NCBI GenBank assembly: GCA_010093995.1
Contig: ML992505.1
Location: 1,532,670-1,596,669, forward strand
Length of the DNA: 64,000 nucleotides
Source: Elsinoe ampelina
Taxonomy: Eukaryota
Reading direction: 5' to 3'
In this document: positions 2,936 through 56,138 of the stretch, piece after piece
How the letters are laid out: each line of letters opens with the position of its first letter
How positions within the stretch are numbered: position 1 is the first letter of the stretch
Notes under the pieces: generated by a model
What the model saw: only the letters and a program-made list of their open reading frames with translations
Told to the model about the DNA's origin: nothing
Database searches by the model: none
Made by a program: the position numbers and the translations under genes

Positions 2936-4795
2936 ATGCCGCTTATCGTTCCTACAGCCACCAATGGCTCCAGTGCTCGTCCAAAGGTACTCATACCTGA
3001 GAAGGTCTCACCTGATGGACTAGCCTTGCTGAAAGGATCTCTGGATGTTCATGAGAAGAAGGGCCTGTCCCCGGAAGATCTTGTCCAGTGCATTGGAGAC
3101 TATGAAGCTCTCATAGTGCGTTCCGAAACGAAGGTTACTGCCGAGGTTCTAGCAGCAGGCAAACGCTTGAAGGTGGTTGCTCGTGCTGGGGTCGGCGTCG
3201 ACAACGTCGATGTAACTGCTGCAACCAAGCATGGCATCATCGTTGTCAATTCCCCAGTCGGCAATATCAATGCTGCCGCTGAGCATACCGTAGCCTGTAA
3301 GTACACATGACCTCAATACCACTTCAAATCCTCACTGCTCCAGTGCTCATGGCAGTCGCTCGCAACATTGGTCCGGCCTATGAAAGTATCCGTGCTGGTA
3401 AATGGGAGAGGAGCAAGCTGGTAGGTGTCGAGCTCAAGGGCAAGAATCTCGCCATCATTGGTCTAGGCAAAGGTCAGTGCCAGCCAATTTGTAGTATCAC
3501 TCAGCTAACATAGTCCAGTGGGTCTTACTGTGGCACGTATAGCAGGAGGTCTGGGCATGAATCTGACTGCATATGACCCCTATGCAAACCCTCAATTGGC
3601 GGCTGCCGCATCAGTCACAATCGTCCCCACCATGGCCGAGCTGATCAAAGAGGCGGACTTCTTGACCATCCACACGCCACTGATTGCCTCGACGAAAGGA
3701 ATGATCGGTGCTGCCGAGCTGGCGACGATGAAGCCGACTGCGCGTATTCTCAACGTCGCCCGTGGAGGCATGATTGATGAAGACGCTTTGATTGCAGCAC
3801 TTGACAACAACACCATTGCCGGCGCGGGTCTTGACGTCTTTACGTCCGAGCCACCGGAGGCTGACTCTTCTGCTTCTCGCGTCATTGCCCACCCCAAGGT
3901 GGTCGCCACTCCTCACCTCGGCGCATCCACTGTCGAAGCTCAAGAAAATGTCTCCATCGACGTCTGCACCCAAGTCCTTTCCATCCTATCCGGCGCCCTC
4001 CCCCGCTCCGCCGTCAACGCCCCCATCATCCTACCAGAAGAATACCGCACTCTCCAACCTTTCGTCTCCCTCGCCGAAAACATGGCGTCCATATTCACGC
4101 AGTACATCGCCCGCTCCGCCTCCACCTCGCGCTCCTCCCTCGAGATCATCTACGAAGGCACCCTCTCGTCCCTCAAAACCACGCAACCCCTCTACGCCGC
4201 CATCGTCAAAGGCCTCCTCACCCCCATCTCCACAAAAGAAACCCTCAACATCAACATCGTCAACGCCGAACTCGTCGCCAAAGAACGCGGCATCCGCATC
4301 GCCGAGGTCCGCAGCAGGGAAACCCTCGAAGGAGAGGGGTACTCTGCTCTCATCACCCTGCGCGCCCGACCAGGTCCCCGCACCCCGTCCACCAGCCGCC
4401 ATCGCGACCCCTTGTCCCCGCCGATTGGCTCTTCGTCCGGAAACGCAGAAGACGACGACCTCACCATCTCCGGGTTCGTCTCCAATAACCTGCCCTACAT
4501 CTCCCGGCTGGGACGCTTCAGCACGTCTTTCATCCCGCAAGGCACGTTGCTCATGTGCAGGAACTATGACGAGCCAGGTAAGATCGGGGTCGTGGGAGGG
4601 CTGTTGGGCAAGGCAGGGGTGAATATTCGGTCGATGAGCGTGGCGCCGTTGGAGAGGGGGGAGGGGGAGCAGGGAGAGGGGAGGGGGAATGAGGCGTTGA
4701 TGATTCTTGGGGTGGATGGGAGGGTGGAGGAGGGGGTGAGGGGGAGTTTGGAGGGGGAGGAAGGGGTGGTGGAGGCGAGGGTTGTTGTGCTTTAG
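2936..4795 (+). CDS. serA: D-3-phosphoglycerate dehydrogenase, type I architecture (catalytic + ASB + ACT), 3 exons
   Basis: Motifs RAGVGVDNVD, NAAAEH, IIGLGKVG (NAD binding), NVARGG, TPHLGAST.EAQ, and C-terminal ACT NYDEPGKIG...GVNI. Introns ~3297-3343 and ~3473-3518. Confidence 0.93.
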
Positions 4796-4900
4796 ATGTG
4801 AGAGGGAATGGGTAGAAGACAGAGATCCATGAGGGTGTCAAGAAAAGAGGTCCCTGCGAGCGAACATGGTAGAAGTACCTTGGTGGAGTGGGGCATTCAA
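3960..4900. other. C/A-rich to G/T-rich skew-switch domain (switch ~4550)
   Basis: ccccgctccgcc-type runs on the left, gagagggggagggggag-type runs on the right, inside a + strand gene. Confidence 0.8.
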
Positions 4901-5124
4901 CTGGACCCCTTGAGCGGTGATACACATCGCATAGCATGAATAGAAAGGGTTGTGTGACCGATTGATGGTGCCTGGAGAGCGGCTCGTGATCGTACATTCA
5001 TAGGATATCTACCTCGTCCGGTGTCTTGGGCTAATTCCATTCCGCAAAATGCCATGACAGGCAGGATCTTCCACACCACAACAAATCACCGTCTCTCTAC
5101 CCGGTATCATGACCTAAAGGTCGT

Positions 5125-6021
5125 TTATTTCCCCTCAAATTCAAACTTCCCCAATCCCCTACCTCCACCACCATGCAGGCCACCCTCCTCATCCCCCAAC
5201 CTCTCCCTAACGAACCTCTCCGCCACGCCCACAGGATCCTTAGCCACACCATCCATCCTCACCTCCTTCTCCACCCCCTGCCCACCCACCGCCGCCGACG
5301 TCGGCGTCAAGCTATCCCCCCTAAACCCACCTCTACCACCACCCGCAGGAGAACCATAATTGCTCAACCTAGCAGGCGTCCTCGCCCCCTCCCCGAACCC
5401 GACCAAACTCCCCGTCCCCTCATCACTGATATTCCCAACACTACTCCTATCCATCTCCATATCCACATCCCCCTGCTCGTCCAACGTACCTGTCTCCGCC
5501 GTCGCAGCCGACTCACTCATCTTATCCTCCTCCCCGCCCACGCTGCCCGACGCCCACGTCGTGCGGCCCCCTACACTCCCCGTCGCGGACGCAGAGCCGA
5601 CGGTGCTCCTCTCCCTCCCGAGCACAGGGTTGCCTTGGTTGTCGAAGTAGCCCGCGCCGCTGCTGTAGCCCGCTTGGGAATGAGGGGCGACGGCGCCGGG
5701 GGTGAGGTTGGCGTTGGGGGGTTGGCGGGCTGTGGCGACGCGTTCGAGGCCGGCGAGGCGGGAGATGCGGTCGGCGCGTTCGGCCGTGGGGTCCGGGGCG
5801 TTGGCGCGGTGGTGCGGGAGGTGTCCTCTGTGGCCGTCTTTGATGGCGACGGTGGAGAGTTCGGACATGGAGGTTGTGGTGGAGTTGGGGGTGCCGCTTG
5901 GGAGGAGAGGTTAGTTGGGCGAGCAGGGGAGGAGGGGGAGGGAGGCTCACGGGATGTCGGAGGGGGTGACGGGGTCGGAGGGAGGTGGGGGGAGGTTGAT
6001 GAGGGTCGGGTGGGATGGCAT
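5125..6021 (-). CDS. Fungal hypothetical protein, disordered, 2 exons
   Basis: ATG 6021 (MPSHPTLINLPPPPSDPVTPSDIP), intron ~5950-5898 (GTGAGC...CTAAC...AAG) joining GTPNSTTTSMSELSTVAIKDGHRG...ADRISRLAGLERV. Confidence 0.7.
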
Positions 6022-6100
6022 TTTGGTGGTGGGGATGGCGGAGATGTGGTAGGAGTACGAGGTCCTGATTGGTATTGGTAGGATTGAAGAGGTGAAGAGT
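5130..6100. other. C/A-rich to G/T-rich skew-switch domain (switch ~5640)
   Basis: Same polarity on the + strand although the gene is on the - strand. Confidence 0.8.
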
Positions 6101-6870
6101 GTAGCAGGTCTTGCGCAGCTAAAAGCGAAGAGGTTGGAGCTCTTTCATGCGAATTGGGTGCCGATCGCTTTTGGTAGCAGCAATGACGATCGATCCTCGA
6201 GAGACAATAAACTGCTCGATCCGGGATCAATCGATATCGTCGTCAGGTGTGTTGTCCAGCGACTTGTCTCGGGCAGATCAGACACCAATTGAGCTTGTGC
6301 GAGGAAGGACCCTTTGTGATCACCACGGGCATTTGACAGCGAACCTGAAGGAAGCGAAACCCTGGAGAGCTCCCGTCCTTGTCGGCTTCGATGGCTCCGC
6401 CGACGTCAGACTCGACCAATCATGTCGTGCTCCAACATTGCTGAACGCGGATCTTTTTCTCCGCGTCTCATCATGCGGATTCTTTCTTTCTCATACAGCC
6501 GTTGATGAGACCATTTCAAAATATATGATAGGAAGAGGGTGATCCGTCATTGACGGGCCTGATCACAACTTTTACAATTCTGAGGCTGTGGTCGACGACC
6601 GGTGGGACAAGGGCAGGCGGAGTGTGCTCAATTTGCAAAGTTTGCTTGGGGTGGAATAGATTTCTCCATCTGGTACAAAGGCTAGGTCTTGAACATTTGT
6701 TTGTTTTCACAGTCATTGTTTATACATGTTAGCTATGGCTGAAAGAGGAGAGTGATGGTGGTATATGGCTGCTGCGAGTTGATGGCACGAGCAGCTGCTC
6801 GCTCTCATGCTGCATGAATACAATGAAACGCCAGCTATGCTGTCTTTGAAGTTTCTCTGGTTAGGAATGA

Positions 6871-10063: not shown

Positions 10064-12592
10064 ATGTCCGACGCAAGCCCACTGGGCTCCTCTACGGCCG
10101 CAAGGAACAAGATCCCCTCACCACCCGCAGCAAAAGAAGCCTCGGGCGCACCTCGCATCAGAAGACGAAACCGAGTCATTGCTTCATGTCTCGAATGTCG
10201 AAGACGAAAATTGAAGTGCGACAAGTCAGCACCATGCTCCAATTGTGCAAAGTTTCGAAGGGACTGCCTGTACTTGGCTCCGGCCTTGGACTCGGTGTCA
10301 CAACAGAAATTGGCCGAGATCAAGGATCGGATGGGCAATCTCGAGCAGAGTCTGGAACGGGATGTGGCGAGGAAGAACAGCACAGACAAGGTCAAGCCCA
10401 AAGTTGAGATTGACAGTGATGAGGATGACTTGCCCGAGTTTGAGGATGAGAAGGACCTGGAGCCAACTCCTCTCGCCTCTCTCGACCAGGTGTATGAGGA
10501 TGATGCTGACGATGACCTGATGGATCTTGGTGTCCAGTTGGGTAAGATGAGAGTGTCAGAGAGGATCGGTGGCTTCGTACGACCAAAGATGGCCGAAGAG
10601 GTATGACTTGAATGATACCTCATTGACACCGCTGATAGTATGTAGTTGACGAGTTGGGGTCAGCGAGGTGGTTCATCGGGCAACATATCATCGCCTCCCC
10701 CTCCACAAGCCGACATTCCAGCCTCTTCGCAGAACTGGTTTCTATCAGACTCTCCAGCAGTCTACCTCGGACCTGGACCCGACTATCTCCCACCAGCGTC
10801 AGGATTCTTCTTCCCAGCCACGGCCGCAAACTCATTGCAAGAGATGCTGCCATCGAGAGCCACATGCGACAAGCTGTTCGAGCAGTATTGGCGAGCAGTT
10901 CACCCAGTCGTCACGATCGTACATAAGCCAAGTTTCCGCAACCTCTACAATCTTTTTTGGCAGCACGTCATGATTGGCACTGAACCTCCGCCGTCGACCC
11001 AAGCTGTCATCTTTGCTTGTCTCTTCAATGCTACTGTCAGCTTGACGGATGAGTCCAGCCTGCAAATCTTTGGGCTACCTCGAGCAGTCTTGGTTGAGAA
11101 GATTCAGGCAAGCACGGAGAAGTGCCTATCCAAAGCGAACTTTCTCAGAACGACAAAATTAGAGACGATGCAGGCCTTTGTGTTATATCTTGTGAATACC
11201 CCTTTCTGCCACATCTGACAGTAGCTGACCAACCAGGTACCTCTATGTCGAGCGGAAGTTTCACGGTCACATTCCGCTCTCACAGGTACGGCGATCCGTC
11301 TAGCTGAGTGTATGGGTCTGCATCGAGACGGAACTCATTACGGCTTCTCGGCGGTAGAGACACATGTTCGTCGTCTCATCTGGTACCATCTCTGCTTCCT
11401 TGACATTAGAACTTGCGAGGCGACTGGACCGCGACCGCAGATTCACAAGGACGACTTTGATACGAAGCTACCCTTGAACGTGAATGAGGATGACCTTACT
11501 CAGAATCCACCTCCGACGGAAGATTTGCCTTACTTTACCGACATGACGCTGAGTCGTATCCGCTTCGAGTGCACCGAGGCACACCGGCAAACCTGGCTGG
11601 ACAATCGAAGGATCGATCAGAAGAAGCTCAAGCATACAGCAGGACTGAGCAGGGTTCAGAAGTTCAGGACGGACATGGAAACACGGTACATGCCTCTGCT
11701 TGCTGGTTCTGACCCTCGACAAAACCTCGCCATGCACTTTTACCGAATTCTTAGCAGTAGACTCTTCATCATGCTACTTCACAGGTACTTTGCTGGAGCC
11801 AGGAATGCTTTGCCTGAGCGACTGAAGCGAATACTTATCGACGCATGTCTAGCGACGAACGAGTTCACCATCTCATTAGAGACAAGACCAGAACTTTCGG
11901 CTTGGGCTTGGTACAGAGGGGCAATTCTACAATACCACTCCGCCATGCTGCTCATGCTTGAAGCACACATGAACCCGAACACAACAGAGGCCCCACGGAT
12001 ATGGCGATGTCTAGACTACATCTTCGAACTTCCGAGCACAATGACAGCACAGGAAAAGTCTGGAAGTGTCATCTTTGCATTAAGGGACAGACTCTCGGTC
12101 TACCAATCAATGCGGAAGATGCGAGCGTCCAAGACCGCCGACGAAGCATTCGAGGACATTCGGCAAAAGTACGGGCAAGGTGTCTTCTCGATACATGCAC
12201 CGACCACCGTCGACTTTAGTGTCCCGATGGCCACTAGCCACATGGATCCACAGCAATTCGGCATGCCACCTATGAGATCCGTGCAAACGCATTCAAGTGA
12301 GTCAGGAAGCCAACAGGGCCAGCACACCGGCAGCGCACCAAGCCCAATGGAAGGTCAAATGACAGCAAGCGACGAGATCGACTGGGTAAGTTGACACCCA
12401 TAAAGGTCCCCACATGGTAAGCTGACCCCTCTGTAGACCGACTGGGACAAGATGTTTCCCGCCGAAGCCTCCGACTTTGGCGCCGCTGAATTGCCCGACT
12501 TCAACCTAGGCAGCTTCACCACCTTCGTCGGCAACTTCCAACAACCACGCACACAATCACAACCACAAATGTTCACTCAGCACCACTCATAA
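10064..12592 (+). CDS. Zn(II)2Cys6 transcription factor with fungal-specific TF middle domain, 4 exons
   Basis: CLECRRRKLKCDKSAPCSNCAKFRRDC binuclear cluster and MGLHRDG...RRLIWYHLCFLD. Introns ~10601-10645, ~11192-11237, ~12386-12436. Confidence 0.93.
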
Positions 12593-12599
12593 CATTTAC

Positions 12600-13440
12600 T
12601 CGTTGCATAGCTTCCCCTCCCTTCAATCAAATAGCCTCACTCTGCGGCCTCGCTTTCACGTGACTCATCGTCAACGCGACCGGTCCATCCCTCAACAATC
12701 CCACATTCTCCTTGAACACCTCCGTCTCCCTGAACTTCATATGCGCCTCCACACTCTCCCACCCAATCAACAACTTCAACACCCTCCCCTTCTTCCCCTC
12801 GCCTATCTTCTCATGCTCCACCTCCTCCTCTCCCCACCCGTACGCGAACCCCTTTGCCCCCGCCGCATCCCCCTCGACCACCTTCCTGAACTGATCCAGC
12901 TTTTCCTCGAATGCCTTGTCCACGGCCGAGAAGTAGGCAGTCACGTTCTCCGTGACGGGCTGGGCGAGGGCGTCTTTGAGCTCGGATTGCGAGGTGAAGG
13001 AGAAGTGGATGTAGGAGGGGGCGCCGCCGAGGGTTTGGGAGAGGTATTTCCCTAGCTCCGGGTATTCGGGGGATTTGGTGAAGGAGATGTGGGAGGAGAT
13101 GGAGTCCCAGTCTGGTGGAGAAGATCAGCTAGGCGTCAAGGGGGAGGAGGGGCGGTGGGGAGGGGGTAGGAGGGGAGACGTACTGATGATCATGAGAAGC
13201 TCTTTGTCGTTCTCGACGGTGGCGCCGTACCAGGAGTCTTGGAAGCCTGGGGCCTTGGAGATGAGCTTATAGCCTTCGGTTTGGGCTTTGCCATTGTCGG
13301 AGGTTTTGTCGTTGGGGTCGAAGGAGGACTTGAGAGGGAGGATGGCAATTTCGGTGGCGACCATGATGGGTGGTTGTGTGTCTATGTTCTATGCTGTGTT
13401 GTTGTATGTACTTCCGGAACGAAGCGGGTGAGCAGATGGC
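12600..13440. other. Skew-switch domain (switch ~12930)
   Basis: C-rich 12600-12900, G-rich 12960-13440 including an intron. Confidence 0.8.
12627..13364 (-). CDS. Dimeric alpha-beta barrel / ABM (antibiotic biosynthesis monooxygenase)-like protein, 2 exons
   Basis: Two similar halves (IINWDSISSH; LIGWESVEAHMKFRET). Intron 13183-13112. Confidence 0.75.
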
Positions 13441-13619
13441 AAGGCTTATATAGCTGGTGCTGCCTCGGTATCTGAGTACAAGCTTACTGATTCAGGATCA
13501 TGTGCCTGGAAAAAGAGGGTCTGAGAACGTGTCGCCAACCTCTTGGCTTGTTTGATGCACAATTTGTCTCTCGCCGTCTGATGCCTCGGAGTCTTTCCCA
13601 CATGTCGTGCTGAAACTCA

Positions 13620-14830
13620 ATTCCCCGCACTGCACCCCCACCTACCCCATCCGGACAGCCCACAACGACGTCACACCATCCCACTCCCAGCATCAACTGC
13701 AAACCAACTTCATCCATCCACCTTCACGCCAAGTGAACATCCTTACCTCGCCCCATCCCTCACAGACTCAACAAACAATGTCCCCCGACCTCGCCCAAAG
13801 CCTCAAATCCGCCTCCACCCCCATCCCCCCCACCTTCTTCTCCACCCTAATAACAGCAAACCACATCCTCCACTCCCAAAGCATAGTCGACGGCTACGGA
13901 CACATCTCCGCCCGCTGCCCCCGCGACCCAACACACTTCCACCTCTCCCGCTCCCTCGCCCCCGCCCTCGTTGCCACCCGCTCCGACATCCTAACCTACC
14001 ACATCCCCTCTGCGGCCCCCGTCCCCCGGCCCCCCTCCGCCCCCTCCTCCGACCCCGACCCCGCCGCCGAGCACCAGAAACACTACCTCGAGCGCTTCAT
14101 CCACGCCTCCATCTACGCGCGCTACCCCGACGTCCAAGCCGTCGTGCACGCGCACTCGGAGGCCGTCTTGCCGTTCGGCATCACGAGTGTGCCGTTGCGG
14201 GCGACGTTTCACATGGCGGGCGTGATGGGGGGACAGGTGCCTGTGTTCGATATCGAGAGGCATTATGCGTCGGGGGATAAGCATGATTTGCTGGTCACGA
14301 ATGAGAAGCTGGGGAGTGCGTTGGCGTTGGGGTTTAATCCTGAGGGGTGGGCGAGTAAAGCTGGTGGGTTTATAAAGAATCTGGCGTTGAGTCAGGTGGG
14401 GATGGGCGGGAAGGAGGAGGAGGTGAGGTACCCTGGGAATTCCGTGGTGTTGATGAGGGGGCATGGGTTTACGGCTGTTGGGGCGAGTGTGGAGGAGGTG
14501 GTGTACAGGGCGATATACACGGTGGTCAACGCGAGGGTGCAGAGGGATGCGGTGTTGTTGCAGGGGGCGTGGAATACAGGTGTGGTAGGAGAGAGGGTGA
14601 CGAAGGTGGGGGAGAAGGGGTATCAGGGTGGGGAGAAGGACGGGATGAGGCTGGAGGGGGTGAAGTTTTTGAGTGATAAGGAAACGAAGGAGGCGTGGGA
14701 GAGCAATAAGGGGCAGGTCATGAGGCCGTACGGGTTGTGGGTACAGGAAGTGAGGCAGAGTGGTAGGTATAAGAATGAGTATTGGGAGAAAGAGGGCGAG
14801 GCAGCGAAGTCATGACCGGGGGGCGTGACA
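13620..14830. other. Skew-switch domain (switch ~14170)
   Basis: C-rich 13620-14160, G-rich 14200-14830. Confidence 0.85.
13778..14815 (+). CDS. Class II aldolase/adducin family protein
   Basis: DGYGHISAR, ERFIHASIY, AVVHAHS (Zn-binding His residues), VVLMRGHG. Confidence 0.9.
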   Translation: MSPDLAQSLKSASTPIPPTFFSTLITANHILHSQSIVDGYGHISARCPRDPTHFHLSRSLAPALVATRSDILTYHIPSAAPVPRPPSAPSSDPDPAAEHQKHYLERFIHASIYARYPDVQAVVHAHSEAVLPFGITSVPLRATFHMAGVMGGQVPVFDIERHYASGDKHDLLVTNEKLGSALALGFNPEGWASKAGGFIKNLALSQVGMGGKEEEVRYPGNSVVLMRGHGFTAVGASVEEVVYRAIYTVVNARVQRDAVLLQGAWNTGVVGERVTKVGEKGYQGGEKDGMRLEGVKFLSDKETKEAWESNKGQVMRPYGLWVQEVRQSGRYKNEYWEKEGEAAKS

Positions 14831-14910
14831 TGAGGAAACGAGCTGGTAGTAAAACGACAGAATGGCACACGAAGAACGAAGAATGACCTAATGACCTAGA
14901 AACTCGAATC

Positions 14911-23669: not shown

Positions 23670-24199
23670 TCATGCAACATCCCTCACAACGAACAACACC
23701 ACGCATTTCCTTTCATCCACTTCCATCACCGACTAATGGACACTTGTATCTGGCATACGTGATTGTCGCCTCCTGGTTGATGGAATTATGGATTGTTTTG
23801 GTTTGGCATCAGCATCTTAGCAGGAGCATCTAGCCGGTATGGATAGCATCCAACAGTATCACATGTATGGTAGTCTCATAGAGCATGAATGACAGTGTCA
23901 TCCTATCCCCATGTTTGCCTCTTTTTTTGATGATTACTGGTGGATTGTGATGAAAGGAGATCAATTGAGAGCTGATGACAAGACTGACGTGCTGAGCTCA
24001 AGTGGGGTCAGCTTGCGCCACACTTCAACGTCGACCTACCCCTGATGGTGAATCTATTGACGGTTGGACTATCAGACACGTCTTCATCAATCATTTTCTT
24101 TCCTCGAGCTCTTCATAATTCGCAAATCGGCATGCATCATTGACGACCATTGGCCACAAGGATAACCGAGCGACTAGCAAGTTGTCCGTCACCACTTAA

Positions 24200-40666: not shown

Positions 40667-40672
40667 TGTCCC

Positions 40673-41803: not shown

Positions 41804-42059
41804 TTCATGGACACCAGTTCTGCAGAGGTGCTGTATCCTGATGATGGCAAGAGCCTGTACTCGAGTAAACAGATCTTCATCCTCAAGCGCGCGGCTATCG
41901 CGTTCACCCGACTCGGAGTTTTCTCGGCGGAGCTCACCTCGCCTCATGCAGATCCCCCGCATATTGCGAGCTCTCATCCCGAAATAATCTCAACAACCTT
42001 CATCTCACTCTCTCAGGCCATTGACCTGGCTCATTCCTTCATGAATACCCTATAGCCAC

Positions 42060-43050: not shown

Positions 43051-43062
43051 AAAAGCGAATGA
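42067..43062 (+). CDS. TUM1: Thiosulfate/3-mercaptopyruvate sulfurtransferase (tandem rhodanese)
   Basis: PHMLP, DARSKGRW.G..PEPR, SGHVPG, catalytic SCGTGVTA, YDGSWTE. Mitochondrial-type presequence. Confidence 0.92.
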   Translation: MLASLLRPTRIPSITLRSHTLPFSLRKMSTSPLQTYLVSPSTAHSALRSSPSTLIPISAAWFLPTSPQTGRNSFLASHIPSSRFFDLDAISDPTSPYPHMLPTAADFSAHISALGIANTDHLLIYDAAESGLFSAPRVAWTFRVFGHKGGVHVLNNFKTWVEEGLPTEGGEEAVFERKMYEATGPEKGMVADFEKVRDIARKNFWEGQDAANALVVDARSKGRWAGTDPEPRKGLSSGHVPGSLSLPFTEVLDEKGRMKGREELRTLFEGKGIKGDREIVTSCGTGVTASVVEAALREAGLAEGKRRVYDGSWTEYAQRAAGIEGLIEKSE

Positions 43063-43220
43063 GATGAGGACGAATTCTTATGCAGCGATTCAGCGGATCT
43101 GGCATGGTCAAAACTTCATGAACCAGGAATGTATGATATTGGTAGAAGCGACAGAATATTCTGGTACAATGATCCCACGCCGCATGGAACTACCAGTGCC
43201 GATCATATCTTGCCCATACT

Positions 43221-48097: not shown

Positions 48098-50047
48098 ATG
48101 GATGCCACCTCCAGCAAAGATGCCGTCATGGCAGATTATGACCTTTCGAAGCCTCTACAGGCTGGCGCTGGATTCAAAATGGGCTTGACGAACTATGGCG
48201 ATCAGCATTTTTCTTTGTTCTTGCGTAAAGCATTCATCAAGGCTGCAGGATACAGCGACGATGCTCTATCAAGACCGCTGGTCGGAATTATCAACACTTA
48301 TTCTGGATTCAACCCTTGTCATGCGAACGTGCCACAGCTCATAGAAGCAGCAAAGAGAGGTGTACTTCTGAGTGGCGGCCTGCCTATCGACTTTCCAACA
48401 ATCAGCCTACACGAATCATTTGCCTCTCCCACCAGCATGTACTTACGCAATCTGATGAGTATGGACACCGAGGAGATGATCAAGGCACAGCCAGTGGACG
48501 CAGTCATTACGATTGGTGGCTGGGATAAGACGGTCCCGGCTCAACTCATGGGTGCTATTTCCGCCAACAAACCAGTGCTACCCCTCGTCACGGGTCCCAT
48601 GATGCCAGGCTCATACCGCGGGACCCGGCTAGGAGCATGCACCGATTGTCGCAACAACTGGGCGGCCTACCGAGCTGGAGAGCTCGACATGGAGGATATT
48701 GCCGGCATCAACGAAGAGCTCGCCCCAACATCCGGCACCTGTGGCGTAATGGGCACCGCCAGCACCATGGCCTGCATCACCGCCGCTCTCGGTCTCATGC
48801 CTTTTCGCGGCGCCTCCGCACCGGCCGTCTCCTCCACCCGCCTCCGCATAGCCGAAGAGACAGGCCACAACGCCGTCGCAGCCGCCAAATCTCAAGTCCT
48901 CCCCCAAGATCTCCTCACCTCTGCCTCATTCCACAACGCCATCACCGTCCTCCAAGCCATCGGCGGCTCCACCAACGCCATCGTCCACCTCCTCGCCATC
49001 ATCAACCGCCACCCCCAACTCACCGGCACCATCACCCTCAAGACCATCGACGACATCGGCCGCCGCACCCCATTGATCGTCGACCTCAAACCCAGCGGCG
49101 ACAACTACATGACCGACTTCCACAACGCAGGCGGCATGCTCGCCCTACTCCACACTCTACACCCCCTCCTCGACCTCTCCGCCCGGACCATCTCCTCCTG
49201 CACCCTGGGCGACCTCCTCGCCAAAACCCCCTTCAAACCCTTCCCCTTCTCCCTCTCCATCATCCGACCCCTCACCTCCCCTCTGCACCCCTCCTCCTCC
49301 CTGGTAGTCCTGAAAGGCAACCTCGCCCCCAACGGCGCCGTCCTCAAAGCCTCGGCGTCAAAATACCGACACCTCCTCTCGCACTCCGGCCCGGCCGTCG
49401 TGTTCCGCAACACGGCCGACCTGGCCGCGCGTATCGACGACCCGGACCTCGACGTCACGGAGGCGTCGGTGCTGGTGTTGCAGAATATAGGTCCGAAGGG
49501 GAATCCAGGCATGCCGGAAGCAGGGGTCATTCCTATCCCGCGCAAGCTGGCTGCCAAGGGCGTTAAGGATATGCTGCGGATCAGCGATGGGAGGATGTCT
49601 GGTACGGCAGGGGGCACGATAGTGTTGCATGTGAGTCCTGAGGCCGGGGTGGGGGGGAGTCCGCTGGGGTGTGTGAGGGATGGGGATGTGGTGGGGGTTG
49701 ATGTCGAGGGGAGGAGGGTGTGGGTTGAGGTTGGGGAGGAGGAGATGAGGAAGAGGATGGTGGAGGGGGTGGAGAGGGAGATGGTGGAGGAGGGGAGGCG
49801 GAAGGCAGAGGAGATGAAGGTGGGAAGGGTAGGGGTGAGAGGGAGGGGGTATAGGTGGTTGTTTGAGAAACATGTGAATCAGGCGGAGGAGGGGTGCGAT
49901 TTCGATTTCTTGACGGCGAGGGGTCCGAAGGAGGATGAGAAGGAGGAAGTCATGGAGGGGGATGAGGAGGTGCAGGAGTTGCAGGAGCAGGTGCGAATGT
50001 ATCGAAATACTTGCGGTGGAGATGGCAGTGAAGATATCATGGCGTAG
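48098..50047 (+). CDS. IlvD/Edd-family dehydratase (sugar-acid dehydratase type), intronless; GCDKT reads GWDKT
   Basis: NPCH, LRNLMSMDTEE, GGWDKT, GTCGVMGTASTM, AIGGSTN, GNLAP, GMPE, SDGRMSGT. No mitochondrial presequence, so not ILV3. Confidence 0.9.
   Translation: MDATSSKDAVMADYDLSKPLQAGAGFKMGLTNYGDQHFSLFLRKAFIKAAGYSDDALSRPLVGIINTYSGFNPCHANVPQLIEAAKRGVLLSGGLPIDFPTISLHESFASPTSMYLRNLMSMDTEEMIKAQPVDAVITIGGWDKTVPAQLMGAISANKPVLPLVTGPMMPGSYRGTRLGACTDCRNNWAAYRAGELDMEDIAGINEELAPTSGTCGVMGTASTMACITAALGLMPFRGASAPAVSSTRLRIAEETGHNAVAAAKSQVLPQDLLTSASFHNAITVLQAIGGSTNAIVHLLAIINRHPQLTGTITLKTIDDIGRRTPLIVDLKPSGDNYMTDFHNAGGMLALLHTLHPLLDLSARTISSCTLGDLLAKTPFKPFPFSLSIIRPLTSPLHPSSSLVVLKGNLAPNGAVLKASASKYRHLLSHSGPAVVFRNTADLAARIDDPDLDVTEASVLVLQNIGPKGNPGMPEAGVIPIPRKLAAKGVKDMLRISDGRMSGTAGGTIVLHVSPEAGVGGSPLGCVRDGDVVGVDVEGRRVWVEVGEEEMRKRMVEGVEREMVEEGRRKAEEMKVGRVGVRGRGYRWLFEKHVNQAEEGCDFDFLTARGPKEDEKEEVMEGDEEVQELQEQVRMYRNTCGGDGSEDIMA
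48780..50000. other. Skew-switch domain (switch ~49460)
   Basis: C-rich 48780-49450, G-rich 49620-50000. Confidence 0.85.
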
Positions 50048-50089
50048 ATCTAGCGGCTAACACTAATATTGAGTCCGAATAGCTACCAG

Positions 50090-50940
50090 AACTTCCATCT
50101 ACAACCCCTGATTCCTAATCGCATCATAACTCGCCTGATACAACCCACACCTAAAATCCACCTGTCCCGACGGAACAATCGTCGCTCCACTTGACCTAAG
50201 CCCACCAATATCCCCAAGCACCGCCAGGTTATAACTCCCACTCGTCCTCTGCCCCTCCCCATCCTGATACAACCCACCAATCTCCTGCTGATTCGCCCCC
50301 AACAAAACCGGCCCGGCCACACCGACATCCACTGCGTTCCAACCCGGTCCTCCGGCAGGGTTCCGCGCGAACCGACCCCATACGCTCTGCATGTACTGCG
50401 TGAGAGCGTACTCTTGCACCGTGGTGTTGAACTTGTCGTACGTCCTGAAGACGATCGGGATTTCACTTGCGTGGTAAGCGCCGAGGTTTGGCAGGGCCTG
50501 GGTGTTTGCGAAGGAGGCGTTGAAGTAGTACCTCCACGACGGGATGCGGGCGGTGGCCGAGTCGTTGAGCATGGCTGCTTGAGGGCATTGGAAGGCGAAT
50601 TCGGTGAAGATCTGCGAGATGACGTCGTAGGGTGTGTTGAGACCGCCGGAGCCTTGGGGGTAGGCGGCGAGGAAGGCGGAGATGATGGTTTCGTTGGCGC
50701 CGAAGGTGGTGGTGAGGAATCGGCGCGTGTCGTTTTGGCCGATTTGGAAGACGCGGCCTTCTTGGCTGTTTGTGCCGGCTAGGACGGGGACGAAGGCGAT
50801 GTTACCGGAACGGCGGGCTTGGGCCGGGTTGGAGACGAGCGTGAGGTTGTCGACGCCGGGGTTGAAGGTGAGTTGGTTGCGTTGGATAATGTCCTTGACT
50901 TGAGTGGCGTTGGCAGCACGGACGCAGGTGAGGTTATTGG
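50090..50940. other. Skew-switch domain (switch ~50400)
   Basis: C-rich 50090-50380, G-rich 50460-50940, inside a - strand gene. Confidence 0.75.
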
Positions 50941-51814
50941 AGAAGGTGCCCGGGCAGTTGAGAGTCGCGGTCAGGTTGAGCCAGGGGCCGAATCCGACTT
51001 GTGGTGGTGTACGGCGGTAGCTGTATTGACCAGACTGGAGGATGGCGCCACGGAATGGTGGGCTGGAGTCGCGGGGAAAGCTGGTCAGGAGGGCATCGAC
51101 GGAGAAGGCGCCGGCAGATTCACCGAAGATAGTGACTTTCTTTGGGTCGCCACCGAAGGCGGCAATGTTGCGTTGAACCCAGTCAAGAGCAGCTCGCTGG
51201 TCAACGAAGCCCAGATTGCGGCCTGTAGCATTGAGCTCGGGCGAGGCAGGGAAGCCAAAGACTAGGATATGTTAGATCTGCCCGCAGGGATCGGGGGTGT
51301 GATGCTGACCGTTGGTGCGGTAGTTGGTCGTGACTACAATGACGTCTTCGTAGGAAGCAAAGTAGCTACCATCGTATGCATCTTGGCCAGCATTGCCAAA
51401 CTGCAGAGATCCGCCGTAGATCCAGAAGAGCACCGATCGAGCATTATGCGGCGAGACTGGCGAGTCTGGGGCAAAGACGTTAAGGTACAAGCAGTCCTCG
51501 CTCTCGGGTGGTGGAGGGTTGTTAAAGGCGCGCTCTGCTGTCGGCGTCAAGAACTGCTGAACGCAAGCAGCGCTGAACTGGGTCGCCTGACGAGGTGCTG
51601 AGCCATATGGGCTCTCCCTGACTGGTGGAGAGAATCGTTCTGGCGGCGACTGCGCGAAGGGAACACCGAGGAACTTGTTGACAGCCGCGGTGGCTGTTGG
51701 CAGCTGAGTCTTGACACCAATGAGCACACCCGAATCAATGGTAGCTGTAGGTGCATCTTGAGCAGAGACCGCCGCAATGAGCGAGCAGGCCGCGAGAAAG
51801 GTAGAAGCCAACAT
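50099..51814 (-). CDS. Secreted carboxylesterase type B (lipase/cholinesterase-like), 2 exons
   Basis: Signal peptide, FLGVPFA, SEDCLYLNV, WIYGG, NYRTNVFGF, FGGDPKKVTIFGESAG, YHASEI. Intron 51310-51262. Confidence 0.92.
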
Positions 51815-53494: not shown

Positions 53495-54354
53495 GTTAAA
53501 AATGTGCCAGTTGCTTTGCACTAAAGAGCACCGCGGAGACTTGGGGTCTGAAAATTTTTGGAGGAGGAGCCAAGGGATGTCGTCAAGTAACTTACATACG
53601 ATGCAGCACCATGAGCGGCCAACAACATGCAGTGAGTGATGCTGCAGATGACCCGTTCACGTTTGAAACTGAATCCCCCTTCCAATGATGGGAATGTGTT
53701 CTTATGGTGACGAGTATCCCCCGCATCTTGCATTCAGATGTGGTGCCTGGCAACAAAAATATGAGTATTCTGAGTGCTTCATGCAGGACAGTTGAGCTAG
53801 TAGCGCCATGACATGTGGGTCGACGTTCTTCAGCTCTGCTGTACAACCCAGGGGTTCCGATTGCTAGCGACAAGTGGCCGCAAGGCCACCCAACACTAGC
53901 ACAGGAAACGATCAACCCATGGAGACCAAAATTGACCAGCTTGGTTATGATGCGCTGCTCCGTTGGACGGCCAATGTCGTACTGTGTCCAGAGACGCAGA
54001 TCACAATGTCATGTATCGATTCCTTGACTTCCCTATTCCTTTTGGCGATTCGACATTTACTGTCAATTCTCGAGGCCGGCAGAAGCCTCGTGCAATAGTC
54101 GGATGTGGATGCCGCTGGGTCTACCTGAAGGCCTCTTGCCTATCTAAGTGGTCCCAGATACAATATCTTGATCTTCACCGCGCGGATGGGCGGGGGAGGC
54201 TCGCTGCCTGGTAGATTCTGACACCTTGTTGCTCGTAAAAGCCCTCTCCGGCATTCCTGCGGGATGGATCTTCAATGGGCCTAGCGAAGGGGATGCATCC
54301 GTTTATCGATTCTCAAGTAAGCTTCCAATGGACGGACGAGGTTGGGCTCGATCT

Positions 54355-55962
54355 TTATCGTTTCGTCCTTTTCTTCGACGTTCCGCCAGTACCATTCGTT
54401 TGTTCCCAGCTCTGTTCCGTTTGCTGTAGACTCCGCATCTCCTGTGCGAGCTTCTCCTTGCTGGGTGTGCCGTTGACACCATTTCCATGGCCCTCGAGCT
54501 TCCGGATCTGCGAGAACGAAGCTTTCTGCAACTTCTGTAACGCAGCAATCTGTGACTTGAGTGTGGCATTCTCAGCTTCGAGACTAGACTGTCCATTCTC
54601 TGCTCCATTCTCATCGAGAGCCATAAAGTCCGCTTGCTGCTCTGGCAGCGTCGCGGAGCTTGCCTTTTGATGCCAACTCGCCATATCTGCGATACTGTCC
54701 GCCAGAATATCCTCTGGGAAGGCCGGATGGGACAAGCTTCTCTCGAAGTCGCTCTGTTGGCTTCTGGGCTCCTCCGCCGCCGAGAAGCGTTGGAATGGTA
54801 ATCGCCCGACAAGATGGGCTGTGAGCTTGTAGTTGGCTGGCATCTGTCCGTCCATCGAGTCTAGCTCCCCGAATTTCGGCTTGACCACCTCTTTGATTTT
54901 CAGCACAGGTTGCTCTTCGTTGACGAATCCTTGTACCGGAAGCATCTCGATATTAGTGATTGGTCCAGGAAGTGACGTAGAAGTCAGCTGAGCGTGGAAT
55001 GATTTCGACGGTATATCCCAGACAATTATCTTCCCTGATGCGTGACCAGTAATTAGTTTCGTGCTGTCGTAGCTCACCCCCATAGACATGATCTCCCCAA
55101 GCTCTTCTCCTGGCTTGGGCCACTTCTGGCTATCCGAGACCTGCACCACCTGGTTCCTCTGCTCCTCGTCCCATACCACATTCCTGATCGCATTCTCTCC
55201 TTTGTCCGTCCGAAAAAAGTCCACACCCACCACCGTCCCGTCTTGGAACCCCACAAACACCGCCCTCTCACAAATGTCCAACACCACACACCTCGGCGCC
55301 TCGGGCAACAACACCGTCATCAACCTCGTCCCCCTCTTATAATCCCACACCCTCACCCCATCCCCAGCCACCGAAACAGCCAAACTGCTCCCAACCCTCA
55401 CGTCCCTCACCGCCTCCCTATGGCCCCTTAAAGTCCTCACCGGCGCCCTCTTCGCAAACTCCAAACTCTCCCCCACATCCCCCCAGCTCCTCACCGCTCC
55501 CAGATTCCATACGCAAATATTCCCATCCTCACTCGCAGACAACGCAAAGCCCTTGCCATCCGCCCGCAATACACTCACAGGTCCCAAGTGCGCTTCCCCC
55601 GTCTTCACCGTCCTCCCACTCAACGTCTCCCACACAATCACCGCCCCGCTCTCCGTCCCGCAGAGCAGCGTGAACCCATCATCCACCAGCGCGAGGGAGG
55701 TGATCCGCTCCTTGAACGGGACTGTCGTCTGGAGAGCGCCTGTATCGCGGGAGTACACATGCACAAGGGCTTTGTCGGATTGTGCGGCGAAGATATGGGA
55801 GCGGGAAACGGCGAGGCAGTGCGGGGCGGTGGAGGACTTTTTGTAGGTCGTGAGGAGGGTGGGTTGGGGCGCGAGGCGGTGGTGGAAGAGGGAGGCGTCT
55901 TTTGGGAGGGAGGTGGTGGTGGAGGGGGTGGCGAGGGAGAGGAGGAGGGATTCGGTCAGCAT
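54355..55962 (-). CDS. IPI3: Pre-rRNA processing Rix1-complex WD40 protein Ipi3 (WDR18)
   Basis: MLTESLL...YKKSST..HCLAVSRSHIFAAQSDKALVHVY, WD repeats (AHLGPVSVL, GHREAV), C-terminal coiled coil. Confidence 0.85.
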   Translation of the reverse strand: MLTESLLLSLATPSTTTSLPKDASLFHHRLAPQPTLLTTYKKSSTAPHCLAVSRSHIFAAQSDKALVHVYSRDTGALQTTVPFKERITSLALVDDGFTLLCGTESGAVIVWETLSGRTVKTGEAHLGPVSVLRADGKGFALSASEDGNICVWNLGAVRSWGDVGESLEFAKRAPVRTLRGHREAVRDVRVGSSLAVSVAGDGVRVWDYKRGTRLMTVLLPEAPRCVVLDICERAVFVGFQDGTVVGVDFFRTDKGENAIRNVVWDEEQRNQVVQVSDSQKWPKPGEELGEIMSMGVSYDSTKLITGHASGKIIVWDIPSKSFHAQLTSTSLPGPITNIEMLPVQGFVNEEQPVLKIKEVVKPKFGELDSMDGQMPANYKLTAHLVGRLPFQRFSAAEEPRSQQSDFERSLSHPAFPEDILADSIADMASWHQKASSATLPEQQADFMALDENGAENGQSSLEAENATLKSQIAALQKLQKASFSQIRKLEGHGNGVNGTPSKEKLAQEMRSLQQTEQSWEQTNGTGGTSKKRTKR

Positions 55963-56110
55963 TGTTGGTTCTGACCGCGCGGGAGTTGTGGAGGTTGCGT
56001 GGTGGGAGGAGAAGAATGTGAGGTTTGCTATGGGATTTTTTTTGGTGGAGCTCTGGATGGGGGGAAAGTTTAGCCGGGGTTCGCCGCGGAGGTTTGCGGT
56101 CGGCGAGAAG
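55150..56110. other. Skew-switch domain (switch ~55700)
   Basis: C-rich 55150-55690, G-rich 55790-56110, extending beyond the IPI3 start codon. Confidence 0.85.
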
Positions 56111-56138
56111 ATGGGTTCTTTAGAACTATGTACATTTA

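Follow-up and report, generated by a model that had tools for sequence, protein, structure and literature searches.

Paired C-rich and G-rich blocks anchored at gene ends in a 64-kb window of the Elsinoe ampelina genome

The closest described system is a polarity of fungal genes in yeasts, with a bias towards C at the 5' end and towards G at the 3' end (McLean & Tirosh 2011, PMC3315797). That polarity reaches fourfold sites, promoters and 3' UTRs and alters amino-acid use, and polymerase co-factors setting different mutational regimes are proposed. A stretch of 64,000 nucleotides of Elsinoe ampelina (GCA_010093995.1, contig ML992505.1, positions 1,532,670 to 1,596,669), hereafter the window, was analysed for a local skew of the same sign, following a preliminary description that had placed 11 C-to-G switches in it.

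Switches were scored by the statistic D, the GC skew of the 300 bp to the right of a position minus that of the 300 bp to its left, and the window was segmented by a three-state HMM. Strong C-to-G peaks (D 0.85–1.12) were found at 4538, 5619, 12910, 14198, 24674, 42473, 49458, 50390 and 55688, accounting for nine of the 11 switches described; the other two, near 30350 (D 0.62) and near 32290 (nearest peak 32766, D 0.68), were weak. At each strong switch lies a unit of 916–1244 bp consisting of a C-rich arm followed by a G-rich arm. Nine large C-rich HMM segments (297–640 bp; C 0.42–0.51, G 0.11–0.18) were obtained, all nine followed directly or within 170 bp by a G-rich segment (348–693 bp), and six more G-only segments (181–718 bp) had no C partner. 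The preliminary description had held that G-to-C switches of equal sharpness and frequency would speak against its pattern. Six sharp G-to-C switches (|D| ≥ 0.8 at 300 bp) were found vs nine C-to-G, and since all six lie at the outer right edge of a unit, three of them being junctions of adjacent units, they are not independent features. Aligned on the switches, GC content peaks at 0.64–0.66 next to the switch and is about 0.55 at the edges. By third-position bins, about 9 of the 30 genes of the window are affected and skew strength is bimodal, not graded, most genes showing nothing comparable. Contigs of runs X3 and X4 agree with the unit sequence (0–1 differences) and are independent support for that sequence. 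The units are confirmed as a real feature.

Boundaries were taken from the HMM and the skew walk. U1 (3906–4893; C-arm 3906–4536, G-arm 4537–4893, skew-walk minimum at 4536) spans the final ~0.9 kb of a D-3-phosphoglycerate dehydrogenase gene on the + strand (ORF 3509–4792, stop codon ending at 4795; Pfam 2-Hacid_dh_C, PGDH_inter and ACT) and is 3'-anchored, with third-position skews of -0.9, -0.7, -0.7, -0.3 and +0.9 in 60-codon bins. U2 (5068–6139; C-arm 5068–5619, G-arm 5620–6139) covers the whole of a small - strand gene with no Pfam match (ORF 5128–5910, intron 5897–5950 with borders placed by eye, start near 6025; sense third-position skew -0.8, -0.4, +0.7, +0.8), and the two units form a pair about a convergent intergenic region near 4980. 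A second pair stands about a divergent promoter region near 13510. On its left, U3 (12494–13409; C-arm 12494–12923, G-arm 12924–13409) covers all of a small - strand gene (CDS about 12627–13365, intron 13112–13183; sense skew -0.6, +0.6, +0.8), its C-arm extending ~100 bp into the 3' end of a neighbouring + strand Zn-cluster transcription-factor gene; on its right, U4 (13613–14850; C-arm 13613–14157, G-arm 14158–14850) extends over the whole of a class II aldolase/adducin-like gene on the + strand (CDS 13778–14815; Pfam Aldolase_II; skew -1.0, -0.8, +0.4, +0.9, +0.8, +0.8). The third pair abuts, the convergent stop codons lying 52 bp apart: U7 (48813–50056; C-arm 48813–49458, G-arm 49459–50056) is 3'-anchored and takes up the final ~1.2 kb of an IlvD/EDD-family dehydratase gene on the + strand (ORF 48098–50047; Pfam ILVD_EDD_N and ILV_EDD_C; third-position skew -0.28 ahead of the unit, then -0.83 over the C-arm region and +0.81 over the G-arm region), and U8 (50057–51093; C-arm 50057–50387, G-arm 50388–51093) occupies the final ~1 kb of a carboxylesterase gene on the - strand (stop codon 50099–50101; Pfam COesterase; sense skew -0.7, -0.7, -0.9, -0.8, -0.2, +0.6, +1.0).

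The remaining units stand singly. U5 (24186–25212; C-arm 24186–24667, G-arm 24668–25212) is 5'-anchored and spans the initial ~1 kb of a prenylcysteine lyase gene on the + strand (CDS 24230–25909; Pfam Prenylcys_lyase), the other 0.7 kb being neutral (skew -0.8, -0.8, 0.0, +0.7, +1.0, +0.7, +0.3, -0.2, -0.1). U6 (41933–43069; C-arm 41933–42473, G-arm 42474–43069) covers a whole + strand rhodanese-domain gene (CDS 42067–43062; Pfam Rhodanese), its C-arm beginning ~120 bp upstream of where the transcript contigs of runs X3 and X4 have their 5' ends (42056 and 42059). U9 (55073–56117; C-arm 55073–55687, G-arm 55688–56117) is 5'-anchored, spanning the initial ~0.9 kb of a WD40-repeat gene on the - strand (Pfam WD40 families) and ~140 bp upstream of the X3 transcript contig end at 55975 (sense skew -0.7, +0.1, +0.8, +0.8, +0.5, then near 0). 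Neither weak site is a full unit. The one at 30000–30667 (peak at 30359) is a short C-to-G alternation at the 3' end of a + strand SMC4-like gene, with a G segment at 30459–30667 and last third-position bins of -0.6, -0.1, +0.4 and +0.8; that at 32304–33011 is patchily G-rich, at and beyond the 3' end of a + strand Vps4-like AAA ATPase gene (HMM: G 32304–32484, C 32485–32570, G 32768–33011).

Anchoring at gene ends, a feature absent from the preliminary description, was assessed on an approximate CDS map with 5000 random placements, an edge being counted if it lay ≤170 bp from a CDS end. Thirteen of the 18 unit edges were counted vs 5.4 expected, a number reached by a fraction 0.0002 of placements; all nine units had at least one anchored edge (0.0036 of random placements), and there were three adjacent unit pairs (0.003), so that six units flank one divergent and two convergent intergenic regions. 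All nine strong switches are inside coding sequence. The order within a pair (C-arm, G-arm, anchor, C-arm, G-arm) is as expected of a two-sided process; the flanks beyond U5, U9 and U6 are neutral, leaving three one-sided anchors. Five genes (those of U1, U5, U7, U8 and U9) are longer than their unit, bearing out the earlier remark that the skew is often limited to part of a CDS, and in these both arms are adjacent at one gene end; neither arm therefore belongs to a fixed end of the gene, contrary to what a rule of 5' C and 3' G would lead one to expect. Measured from the anchor in the five partial units, skew sets in sharply in the near arm, at about -0.6; the far arm is the longer of the two in all five and hump-shaped, with its peak at 600–800 bp, and GC content forms a plateau of 0.59–0.64 from 100 to 1000 bp. 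Such a layout favours an anchor between genes, at the gene end, over one at the switch. The same polarity had been reported in + and - strand genes, and it was seen; as evidence of independence from gene orientation it is an artefact of symmetry, because the succession of C-arm and G-arm reads alike on either strand and equal polarity in both orientations is automatic.

The bias was then resolved by site class. At fourfold sites, where the skew was no weaker than in any other class of site, GC skew on the sense strand stood at -0.74 for the 5' arm and +0.75 for the 3' arm vs -0.10 in the rest of the same genes; pooled over the nine units, base fractions were A.10, C.73, G.11, T.07 in the 5' arm (n=817) and A.08, C.10, G.69, T.13 in the 3' arm (n=639), vs A.20, C.33, G.27, T.20 in the rest (n=505). 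GC3 was.81 and.74 in the arms vs.63 in the rest. Twofold NAR codons in the 5' arm were 83 A : 23 G vs 53 : 95 in the rest, and twofold Y-ending codons in the 3' arm 176 T : 73 C vs 86 : 134. The claimed succession of C/A and G/T thus held at twofold synonymous sites and hardly over all sites, where AT skew in the arms is small (within -0.11 to +0.12). Both introns lying inside units (5897–5950 and 13112–13183) share the unit skew (+0.67 each, + strand), as had been said of introns generally, and at U6 and U9 the skew sets in 120–140 bp upstream of transcript-contig ends. The fourfold skew, skewed introns and skew upstream of transcript ends together argue against codon or protein selection, so the earlier judgement that codon preference is insufficient stands, and the loss of skew at fourfold and intron sites that would have counted against it did not occur. 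Codon positions 1 and 2 are also skewed within units, position 2 by -0.54 and +0.44 in the two arms with the frame of one gene off by one base.

In all three genes tested, Elsinoe species differed from other Dothideomycetes by a shift of an amino-acid skew index at the same place, which together with the position-2 skew indicates a bias strong enough to alter proteins. Between Elsinoe species, proteins had diverged no more in the arms than elsewhere. Fungal-like metagenome loci (196 kb) held four C-to-G pairs and no G-to-C pairs, at a density below that of the window, and other loci (745 kb), the bacterial-like ones included, held neither kind. In every fungal-like locus among those listed, third-position skew of the IlvD-family orthologue went from a negative first bin to a positive last bin. 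Fixed, local, strand-asymmetric substitution, as first suggested, is borne out by the fourfold sites, the introns and the amino-acid imprint at the same gene positions in several Elsinoe species. We put at about 0.8 the probability that the units are the long-term footprint of a strand-asymmetric, GC-raising substitution bias at the DNA level, anchored in the gene-end nucleosome-free region, and not the product of selection on codons, proteins or nucleic-acid structure. On the outward strand, read 5' to 3' from the anchor, substitution would run towards C for the first ~0.3–0.6 kb and then towards G for the next ~0.55–0.7 kb.

Selection on translation or amino acids, with C-ending codons favoured early and G-ending codons late, would fit a skew that peaks at third codon positions and, in every affected gene, follows the sense direction from 5' to 3', but that sense polarity is automatic for a reverse-complement-symmetric pattern, introns and untranslated flanks carry the same skew, five genes have the blocks at one end only and most genes of the window show nothing comparable; it is the least credible account. 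Bidirectional replication origins at the switches, which had also been put forward, are scarcely more credible. The C-to-G sign is that established at bacterial origins, and, by reasoning, the inferred damaged strand would be the one that is exposed on either side as the template for lagging-strand synthesis; all nine switches, however, are in GC-rich coding sequence, the skew ends 0.3–0.7 kb from the switch and does not run to a next terminus, and nine units, some back to back, occur in 64 kb. Eukaryotic origins are far sparser than nine per 64 kb, and known replication skews are far below ±0.75 at silent sites. Selection for structure (fold-back of the arms, G-quadruplexes or i-motifs, R-loop-prone zones or unstructured mRNA halves) is very improbable. 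Its attractions are that the arms are compositionally complementary, that G-runs are common, with 20 canonical G4 motifs over the 18 arms, and that position is conserved across Elsinoe species. The best local arm-to-arm complementarity nevertheless stayed within the shuffle range in all nine units, exceeding the best of 40 shuffles in none, and no long intra-unit inverted repeat was among the 25 longest inverted repeats listed; arm-wise dinucleotide shuffles gave 16.1 ± 3.5 G4 motifs, so that the count is explained by composition, and, as the skew extends upstream of transcript-contig ends, the sense mRNA alone does not account for it. The earlier proposals of fold-back elements and selected G-quadruplexes are accordingly not supported. 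A recombination or damage hotspot at the switch itself, within coding sequence, with repair synthesis or strand exposure over ~0.5 kb both ways, which is the DSB-repair version of the preliminary description, is unlikely. It would suit the roughly equal, mirror-like arms and the GC maximum beside the switch, and repair renewing the bottom strand to the left and the top strand to the right would, if G.T mispairs dominate, be reasoned to give the observed sign; on the same kind of reasoning, damage to the single-stranded 3' tails of a central break would give the opposite one. It leaves unexplained the coincidence of edges with CDS ends, the pairing across intergenic regions and the contrast of short, abrupt near arm with hump-shaped far arm. 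No shared motif was seen by eye at the nine switches, and in the fungi studied breaks fall mainly in nucleosome-free regions, not in coding sequence.

Two readings place the anchor at the gene end. RNA polymerase II could start at the gene-end nucleosome-free region, in sense from 5' ends and in antisense from 3' ends, early and elongating polymerase bringing different mutation or repair, so that on the non-template strand ~0.5 kb of C enrichment would give way to ~0.5 kb of G enrichment. The anchoring itself is in its favour, as are the one-sided anchors of U5 and U9, natural for a one-directional promoter, and the polarity of the listed IlvD-family orthologues. It is, however, burdened by the arms lying together at one end of the longer gene, by the antisense promoters that 3'-anchored U1, U7 and U8 would require, by the restriction of a bimodal effect to so few genes, by contig depth (a poor measure) not setting affected genes apart, and by GC3 being raised in both arms, whereas non-template deamination would lower GC; we know of no transcription step that accounts for a sign flip at ~0.5 kb. 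We regard it as possible but doubtful. The mechanism that we prefer, tentatively, is a biased, strand-specific repair at sites of recombination in the nucleosome-free regions of gene ends, and every step of it that invokes recombination we infer. The anchors would be evolutionarily stable sites of meiotic recombination initiation; after a break, each side would carry heteroduplex in which a donor-derived strand is paired with the recipient 3' tail, and nick-directed mismatch repair would be of conversion type near the break and of restoration type farther off. Short-patch base excision is supposed to remove T from G.T and A from A.G mispairs. Changes from T/A to C on the outward strand would then be transmitted preferentially near the break and changes from A/T to G farther out, yielding a C-arm followed by a G-arm on either side of the anchor, and a second, weaker process may remove C by C-to-T change on the G-rich strand, whichever that is. 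A repair process of this kind agrees with the pairs about intergenic anchors, the abrupt near arm and hump-shaped far arm, and the adjacency of the arms. Against it are the three one-sided anchors, whereas break processing is two-sided, and the unraised Elsinoe protein divergence in the arms; against simple biased gene conversion, GC peaks beside the switch or plateaus, not next to the anchor, and against biased conversion alone are the GC-lowering shifts at twofold sites (NAR to A, Y to T).

The statement that no named fungal feature matches the pattern needs qualification, as a weaker, gradient form has been published for yeasts (PMC3315797). The published polarity, with its proposed co-factor regimes, has the same sign as the units, is the closest pattern in print and lends support to a role of polymerase II, under which the units would be an extreme, block-like form of the fungal 5'-C/3'-G polarity. 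As described there, that polarity is a weak gradient; the Elsinoe units are paired blocks at one gene end.

GC skew was compared between adjacent 300-bp windows along the stretch, with the switch statistic D taken as the skew of the right window minus that of the left. Nine C-to-G peaks with D of 0.85-1.12 were found, at 4538, 5619, 12910, 14198, 24674, 42473, 49458, 50390 and 55688. These correspond to nine of the eleven positions in a preliminary description of this DNA, which had reported at least ten domains passing from C/A-rich to G/T-rich; the other two positions were weak (D of 0.62 at 30359, and 0.68 at 32766, the peak nearest to 32290). A three-state HMM run over the window delimited nine large segments rich in C (297-640 bp; C 0.42-0.51, G 0.11-0.18), every one followed directly or within 170 bp by a G-rich segment of 348-693 bp, and six shorter G-only segments without a C partner. 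Each C-rich segment (C-arm) and its G-rich successor (G-arm) are treated here as one unit, with the switch at their border: U1 (3906..4893), U2 (5068..6139), U3 (12494..13409), U4 (13613..14850), U5 (24186..25212), U6 (41933..43069), U7 (48813..50056), U8 (50057..51093) and U9 (55073..56117). Units were 916-1244 bp long, and each switch was located to a range of 15-103 bp from the minimum of a skew walk. When units were aligned on the switch, mean skew lay at about -0.4 to -0.6 in the 540 bp to its left and at +0.4 to +0.65 in the 480 bp to its right. The flip was completed in ~60-120 bp, and AT skew in the arms was small (-0.11 to +0.12). No shared motif was seen by eye in the +/-60 nt around the nine switches. 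As an observation the skew switches are confirmed, and they are stronger and more regular than had been described.

Sharp switches ran in both directions: six G-to-C switches were sharp (|D| >= 0.8, 300-bp windows) against nine C-to-G, and all six lay at the outer right edge of a unit, three of them being junctions of adjacent units. A C-arm followed by a G-arm is its own reverse complement, so it reads the same in + and - genes and the sense strand always runs from C-rich to G-rich; the constant polarity in genes of both strands, which had been offered as independence of orientation, is therefore uninformative.

The 64-kb window has a G+C content of 54% and carries intron-containing genes with fungal families, including a Zn(2)-Cys(6) cluster and a fungal-specific transcription factor domain. 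Its IlvD-family dehydratase is 99% identical to an Elsinoe ampelina protein, and two further proteins share 92% and 94% identity with proteins of Elsinoe batatas, so the window is taken to be E. ampelina or a very close relative of it, within the Dothideomycetes; in a search with the rhodanese protein the best relatives reached at most 53% identity. Contigs from sequencing runs X3 and X4 matched unit sequence with 0-1 differences, so the units are not an assembly artefact. Spliced joints were present in runs X3, X4 and X7, though no listed run is recorded as RNA, and the contigs carry no strand, starts or levels. Run X12 comes from a relative ~5-15% diverged, for which 890 differences were listed. 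One X3 transcript contig (42056-44244) spans the rhodanese gene and its convergent - strand neighbour, including the spliced intron of the latter (43630-43679). Contigs of both X3 and X4 connect 48999 with 49673, leaving out 673 bases with ends CA..GT and with 44 letters on the short side; a cluster of differences at 49704-49720 and loose ends at 48961/49000 and 49750-49806 accompany this joint, which is most likely a chimeric assembly across low-complexity C-rich/G-rich sequence and not splicing.

In-frame codons of the nine unit genes were pooled and read on the sense strand. Fourfold sites (A/C/G/T) stood at.10/.73/.11/.07 in the 5' arm (n=817),.08/.10/.69/.13 in the 3' arm (n=639) and.20/.33/.27/.20 in the rest of the same genes (n=505), giving skews of -0.74 and +0.75 in the two arms. 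Purine-ending twofold codons (A:G) numbered 83:23, 25:232 and 53:95 in the same three classes, pyrimidine-ending twofold codons (C:T) 239:15, 73:176 and 134:86, and GC3 was.81,.74 and.63. Codon position 2 was skewed by -0.54 and +0.44 in the two arms, in a count that took the aldolase-like gene one base out of frame. Both introns inside units had a skew of +0.67, as in the flanking exons, and in U6 and U9 the skew began 120-140 bp upstream of the ends of transcript contigs. Untranslated flanks were delimited by the same composition-based HMM, so that the introns are the sole independent check. The skew was thus kept at both fourfold and intron sites, where the preliminary description had suggested looking for its disappearance, and because introns within units share it, selection on codons or amino acids is ruled out as its source. 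All-site GC was 0.59-0.64 within units against ~0.55 beyond, and formed a plateau or a maximum beside the switch.

Third-position skew was also followed in 60-codon bins over 33 ORF segments. Its strength was bimodal: the nine unit genes ran from -0.7 to -1.0 and then +0.6 to +1.0, and most other ORF segments stayed within about +/-0.4. Exceptions were the ORF at 21462-23666 and the SMC4-like gene, both described below, and isolated bins elsewhere, such as the final bin of an importin (-0.6). Units occur in about a third of genes. All nine switches fall inside ORFs, seven of them Pfam-supported: phosphoglycerate dehydrogenase (U1), class II aldolase-like (U4), prenylcysteine lyase (U5), rhodanese (U6), IlvD/EDD dehydratase (U7), carboxylesterase (U8) and WD40 (U9). 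Four units (U2, U3, U4 and U6) cover a whole small gene; three (U1, U7 and U8) occupy the final ~1 kb of a longer gene, with the C-arm starting mid-gene; and two (U5 and U9) cover the first ~1 kb, with the G-arm ending mid-gene and the far gene end neutral.

On an approximate CDS map drawn from ORFs, Pfam matches and spliced contigs, 13 of 18 unit edges lay within 170 bp of a CDS end (mean 5.4 over 5000 random placements, a fraction of 0.0002 reaching 13), and every unit had at least one such edge (random-placement fraction 0.0036). The independence from genes that had been proposed is not borne out by this tie to CDS ends. Three pairs of units were adjacent (random-placement fraction 0.003), flanking one divergent region (~13510) and two convergent regions (~4980 and ~50056); the flanks beyond units were neutral. 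Read from the anchored edge, the five partial units had a near arm that began abruptly at about -0.6 and a far arm shaped as a hump, with its peak at a distance of 600-800 bp; the far arm was the longer in all five (545-706 bp versus 331-598 bp). All nine units fit a common description: on the outward strand, read 5' to 3' from a gene-end intergenic region (the anchor), the sequence is C-rich and then G-rich, over ~1 kb in total.

Arms poor in G or C have few stop codons in several frames and so produce long spurious ORFs. Inside the units, many long stop-free frames overlapped on both strands (stretches 3792-4837, 5113-6242, 13582-14809, 42045-43077, 48529-50056 and 55188-56119), for example frames of 276, 207 and 268 aa near U1 and of 345, 257 and 232 aa near U7. 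The public E. ampelina dehydratase model (P0001, 718 aa) departs from the orthologue-supported C-terminus and continues through G-arm sequence. Gene models in unit arms may be wrong, and the arms can likewise distort statistics of codon usage and give misleading results in tests of selection or of horizontal transfer.

Several features lie beside or between the units. In the 3' third of an SMC4-like gene (29272-30667) a weaker alternation was seen, with third-position skew of about +0.5 over four bins, -0.6, and finally +0.8; the alternation may represent an incomplete or decaying unit. A 735-codon + strand ORF without a Pfam family (21462-23666) had uniformly C-rich third positions, with skew between -0.6 and -0.8 in all but one of its 12 bins; it lacks a G-arm, contains 66-nt direct repeats at 22392-22565, and its skew is of a different kind from that of the units. 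Tandem repeats of 15 nt (~7 copies, 70-100% alike) at 19756-19910, which would encode a proline-rich repeat on the - strand, lie within a 0.7-kb G-rich segment (19429-20146) and account for one of the partnerless G segments. Just downstream of the aldolase-like gene, at 14911-14980, a 34-nt direct repeat occurs twice (94% alike, 36 nt apart). The convergent stop codons of the dehydratase and carboxylesterase are 52 bp apart (50047-50099), so the 3' UTRs of these genes must overlap.

Conservation was followed with an index deduced from the amino acids of each protein, namely G minus C at codon positions 1-2. In the dehydratase the C-arm index was -0.20 in the window and -0.17 in E. fawcettii, with outgroups at -0.05 to -0.12, and the G-arm index was +0.54 and +0.51, with outgroups at +0.18 to +0.40. 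The prenylcysteine lyase G-arm stood at +0.41 to +0.56 in five Elsinoe-clade proteins versus +0.12 to +0.28 in eight outgroups, with no clear separation in the C-arm. In the aldolase-like protein, C-arm values were -0.24 to -0.31 in five Elsinoe-clade proteins versus about -0.1 to 0 in outgroups (Zymoseptoria -0.23), and G-arm values +0.27 to +0.33 versus 0 to +0.13 (Myriangium +0.25). The index was therefore shifted in Elsinoe species in all three genes, which places the same units at matching gene positions throughout the genus; outside the genus they are weak or absent. Between Elsinoe species, with outgroup pairs as controls, protein identity was no lower in the arms than in the rest, and gave no sign of a mutation-rate hotspot. 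Among single-step replacements polarised against the outgroup consensus, C was lost 16 times and gained 0 times in G-arms, the commonest change being C>G (10), and G was lost 12 times and gained 7 times in C-arms, the latter a weak result; counts were small, and multi-step sites (30 in C-arms, 40 in G-arms) were dropped. The replacements are taken as no more than suggestive.

Metagenome loci encoding dehydratase relatives were scanned with a GC-scaled HMM. Fungal-like loci (196 kb) held four C-to-G pairs and no G-to-C pairs, other loci (745 kb, mostly high-GC3) held no pairs either way, and the window under the same settings gave eight C-to-G and two G-to-C pairs. C-then-G units were located on fungal-like metagenome contigs at L001:15462-16157, L010:2402-3443, L015:13830-14485, L014:933-1627 and L017:8215-9224. 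Several correspond to a small whole ORF or a first exon, with third-position skew of about -0.8 to +0.9; that of L001 lies on a small - strand ORF (sense third-position skew -0.8 to +1.0), and that of L014 on the first exon of the dehydratase orthologue, the Elsinoe unit being elsewhere in the gene. Third positions of the window dehydratase are at -0.83 and +0.81 in the two arm regions; the orthologue reached <= -0.3 and >= +0.3 in the matching regions in 3 of 11 fungal-like loci and 1 of 60 other loci, and the latter (L002; 61% identity, moderate GC3) is probably also fungal. The phenomenon thus extends beyond Elsinoe, with units far denser and stronger in the window than in the metagenome loci.

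The units are best read as a DNA-level substitution bias anchored at gene ends, to which we assign a probability of about 0.8: the bias lies on the DNA irrespective of coding, raises GC in both arms, alters proteins, is anchored at gene ends and has been stable over the age of the genus. Part of the interpretation in the preliminary description, that of local sites of strand-asymmetric substitution, possibly recombinational, stands; its replication origins and its selected fold-back or G-quadruplex structures do not, nor does independence from genes. Replication origins are a poor fit to nine switches in 64 kb that all lie in ORFs and none at a non-coding region, with arms ending 331-706 bp (0.3-0.7 kb) from the switch, neutral flanks and no skew carried from origin to terminus. 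Were the units fold-back or inverted-repeat elements, the left arm should pair with the right; the best local alignment to the reverse complement of the right arm scored 10.5-15.0 against shuffle maxima of 13.0-17.5, and in none of the nine units exceeded that unit's own maximum. The selected G-quadruplex or i-motif tracts that had also been suggested are accounted for by composition, since 20 G4 motifs were counted against 16.1 +/- 3.5 in 200 arm-wise dinucleotide shuffles, a fraction of 0.185 of which reached 20. A force that can drive silent sites to ~70% one base and alters conserved enzymes at the same place throughout a genus has a major and unexplained part in shaping the genes of fungi.

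As to its cause, we infer, tentatively and at somewhat less than even odds, a recombination mechanism. Breaks would form in gene-end nucleosome-free regions, and on each side of a break the heteroduplex would consist of a donor-derived outward strand and the recipient's 3' tail. Nick-directed mismatch repair would then convert to the donor near the break and restore the recipient farther out; conversion followed by restoration is the classical explanation of conversion polarity gradients. Short-patch glycosylases, which act on T in G.T and A in A.G mispairs, are supposed also to remove those bases here. When each of the four transition cases is followed through, together with its transversion counterparts, T/A-to-C changes on the outward strand would be transmitted preferentially near the break and A/T-to-G changes farther out, which would give the arm order, the rise of GC in both arms, the ~0.5 + 0.5 kb scale, the square near arm and the hump of the far arm. 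The model would also account for mirror-image pairs on the two sides of an anchor, for "hot" intergenic regions being a minority, for stable positions and for divergence that is not raised. The GC-lowering shifts at twofold sites would call for a further process, C-to-T change on the G-rich strand. Against recombination stand three anchors that are one-sided and the absence of a GC peak at the anchor, the plateau or maximum lying beside the switch. One-sidedness is explained by the main rival, in which RNA polymerase II starting at the anchor, sense or antisense, sets the same geometry; this we rate slightly below recombination. It leaves the flip unaccounted for and would require antisense promoters at three of the 3' anchors. 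If transcription is the driver, a sharp, distance-dependent change in strand-specific mutation or repair would occur ~0.5 kb from initiation sites. Returning to recombination, a fuller and slightly more doubtful proposal is that heteroduplex repair in meiosis has left the units as its fossil record. Each would mark a long-lived break site in a gene-end nucleosome-free region, with the flip at the distance where conversion gives way to restoration; biased gene conversion would be strand-specific, its geometry readable from one genome, and the weak 5'-C/3'-G gradient of yeast would be the near arms of the same process at both gene ends. Were recombination the driver, the sequence by itself could reveal where hotspots lie and how heteroduplex tracts are laid out, also in species that are impractical to cross, and the yeast gradient described in 2011 would gain a mechanism.

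Among known systems, GC-biased gene conversion at stable recombination hotspots, of which the study of Lesecque et al. 2013 is reportedly an example, shares with the units a kilobase-scale rise in silent-site GC (GC3.81/.74 vs.63), a strength sufficient for amino-acid changes and a location stable among related species; in fungi recombination hotspots are tied to nucleosome-free regions. As described it has no strand asymmetry, whereas the GC gain of the units is almost all C in one half and G in the other and is accompanied by GC-lowering transitions on the G-rich strand. Bacterial origins share the C-rich-then-G-rich polarity and the idea of one strand being more exposed on each side; unlike their switches, which span a whole replichore, those of the units have a 0.5 kb scale, lie in coding sequence and are far higher in density and magnitude. 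Zones of GC skew and R-loops at mammalian CpG-island promoters and terminators, said to have been described by Ginno and colleagues, resemble the units in their kilobase scale and in having transcript ends as their anchors, and the 3' arm of the units has a non-template strand rich in G; at mammalian promoters that strand is G-rich just downstream of the start site, with no biphasic block, and there the units are C-rich. In literature outside subscription journals, block-like C-then-G units were not found described for filamentous fungi or for Elsinoe.

The closest description in print is the polarity of most unicellular fungi, an average bias of the coding strand towards C at 5' ends of genes and towards G at 3' ends, reaching to fourfold sites, promoters, UTRs and amino-acid use, and for which polymerase-phase-specific mutation and CTP economy have been proposed (McLean & Tirosh 2011, PMC3315797). 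The units likewise run 5' to 3' from C-biased to G-biased on the coding strand with comparatively flat AT skew, affect fourfold sites, reach promoters and UTRs and shift amino-acid use. The published polarity is a weak, species-averaged gradient in yeasts, seen in most genes on average, gradual, with an intermediate middle and tied to the two gene ends; the units are discrete ~1 kb blocks, borne by about one gene in three in a filamentous Dothideomycete, and have a skew close to +/-0.75 at silent sites, bimodal strength and an abrupt switch (~60-120 bp). The 5'-C/3'-G rule holds in the four whole-gene units (U2, U3, U4 and U6) and not in the other five of nine, where the arms, always adjacent, both lie at one end of a longer gene, an arrangement that "C at start, G at end" does not predict. 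We therefore class the units as a block-like form of a known, unexplained fungal skew polarity, the block form being new.
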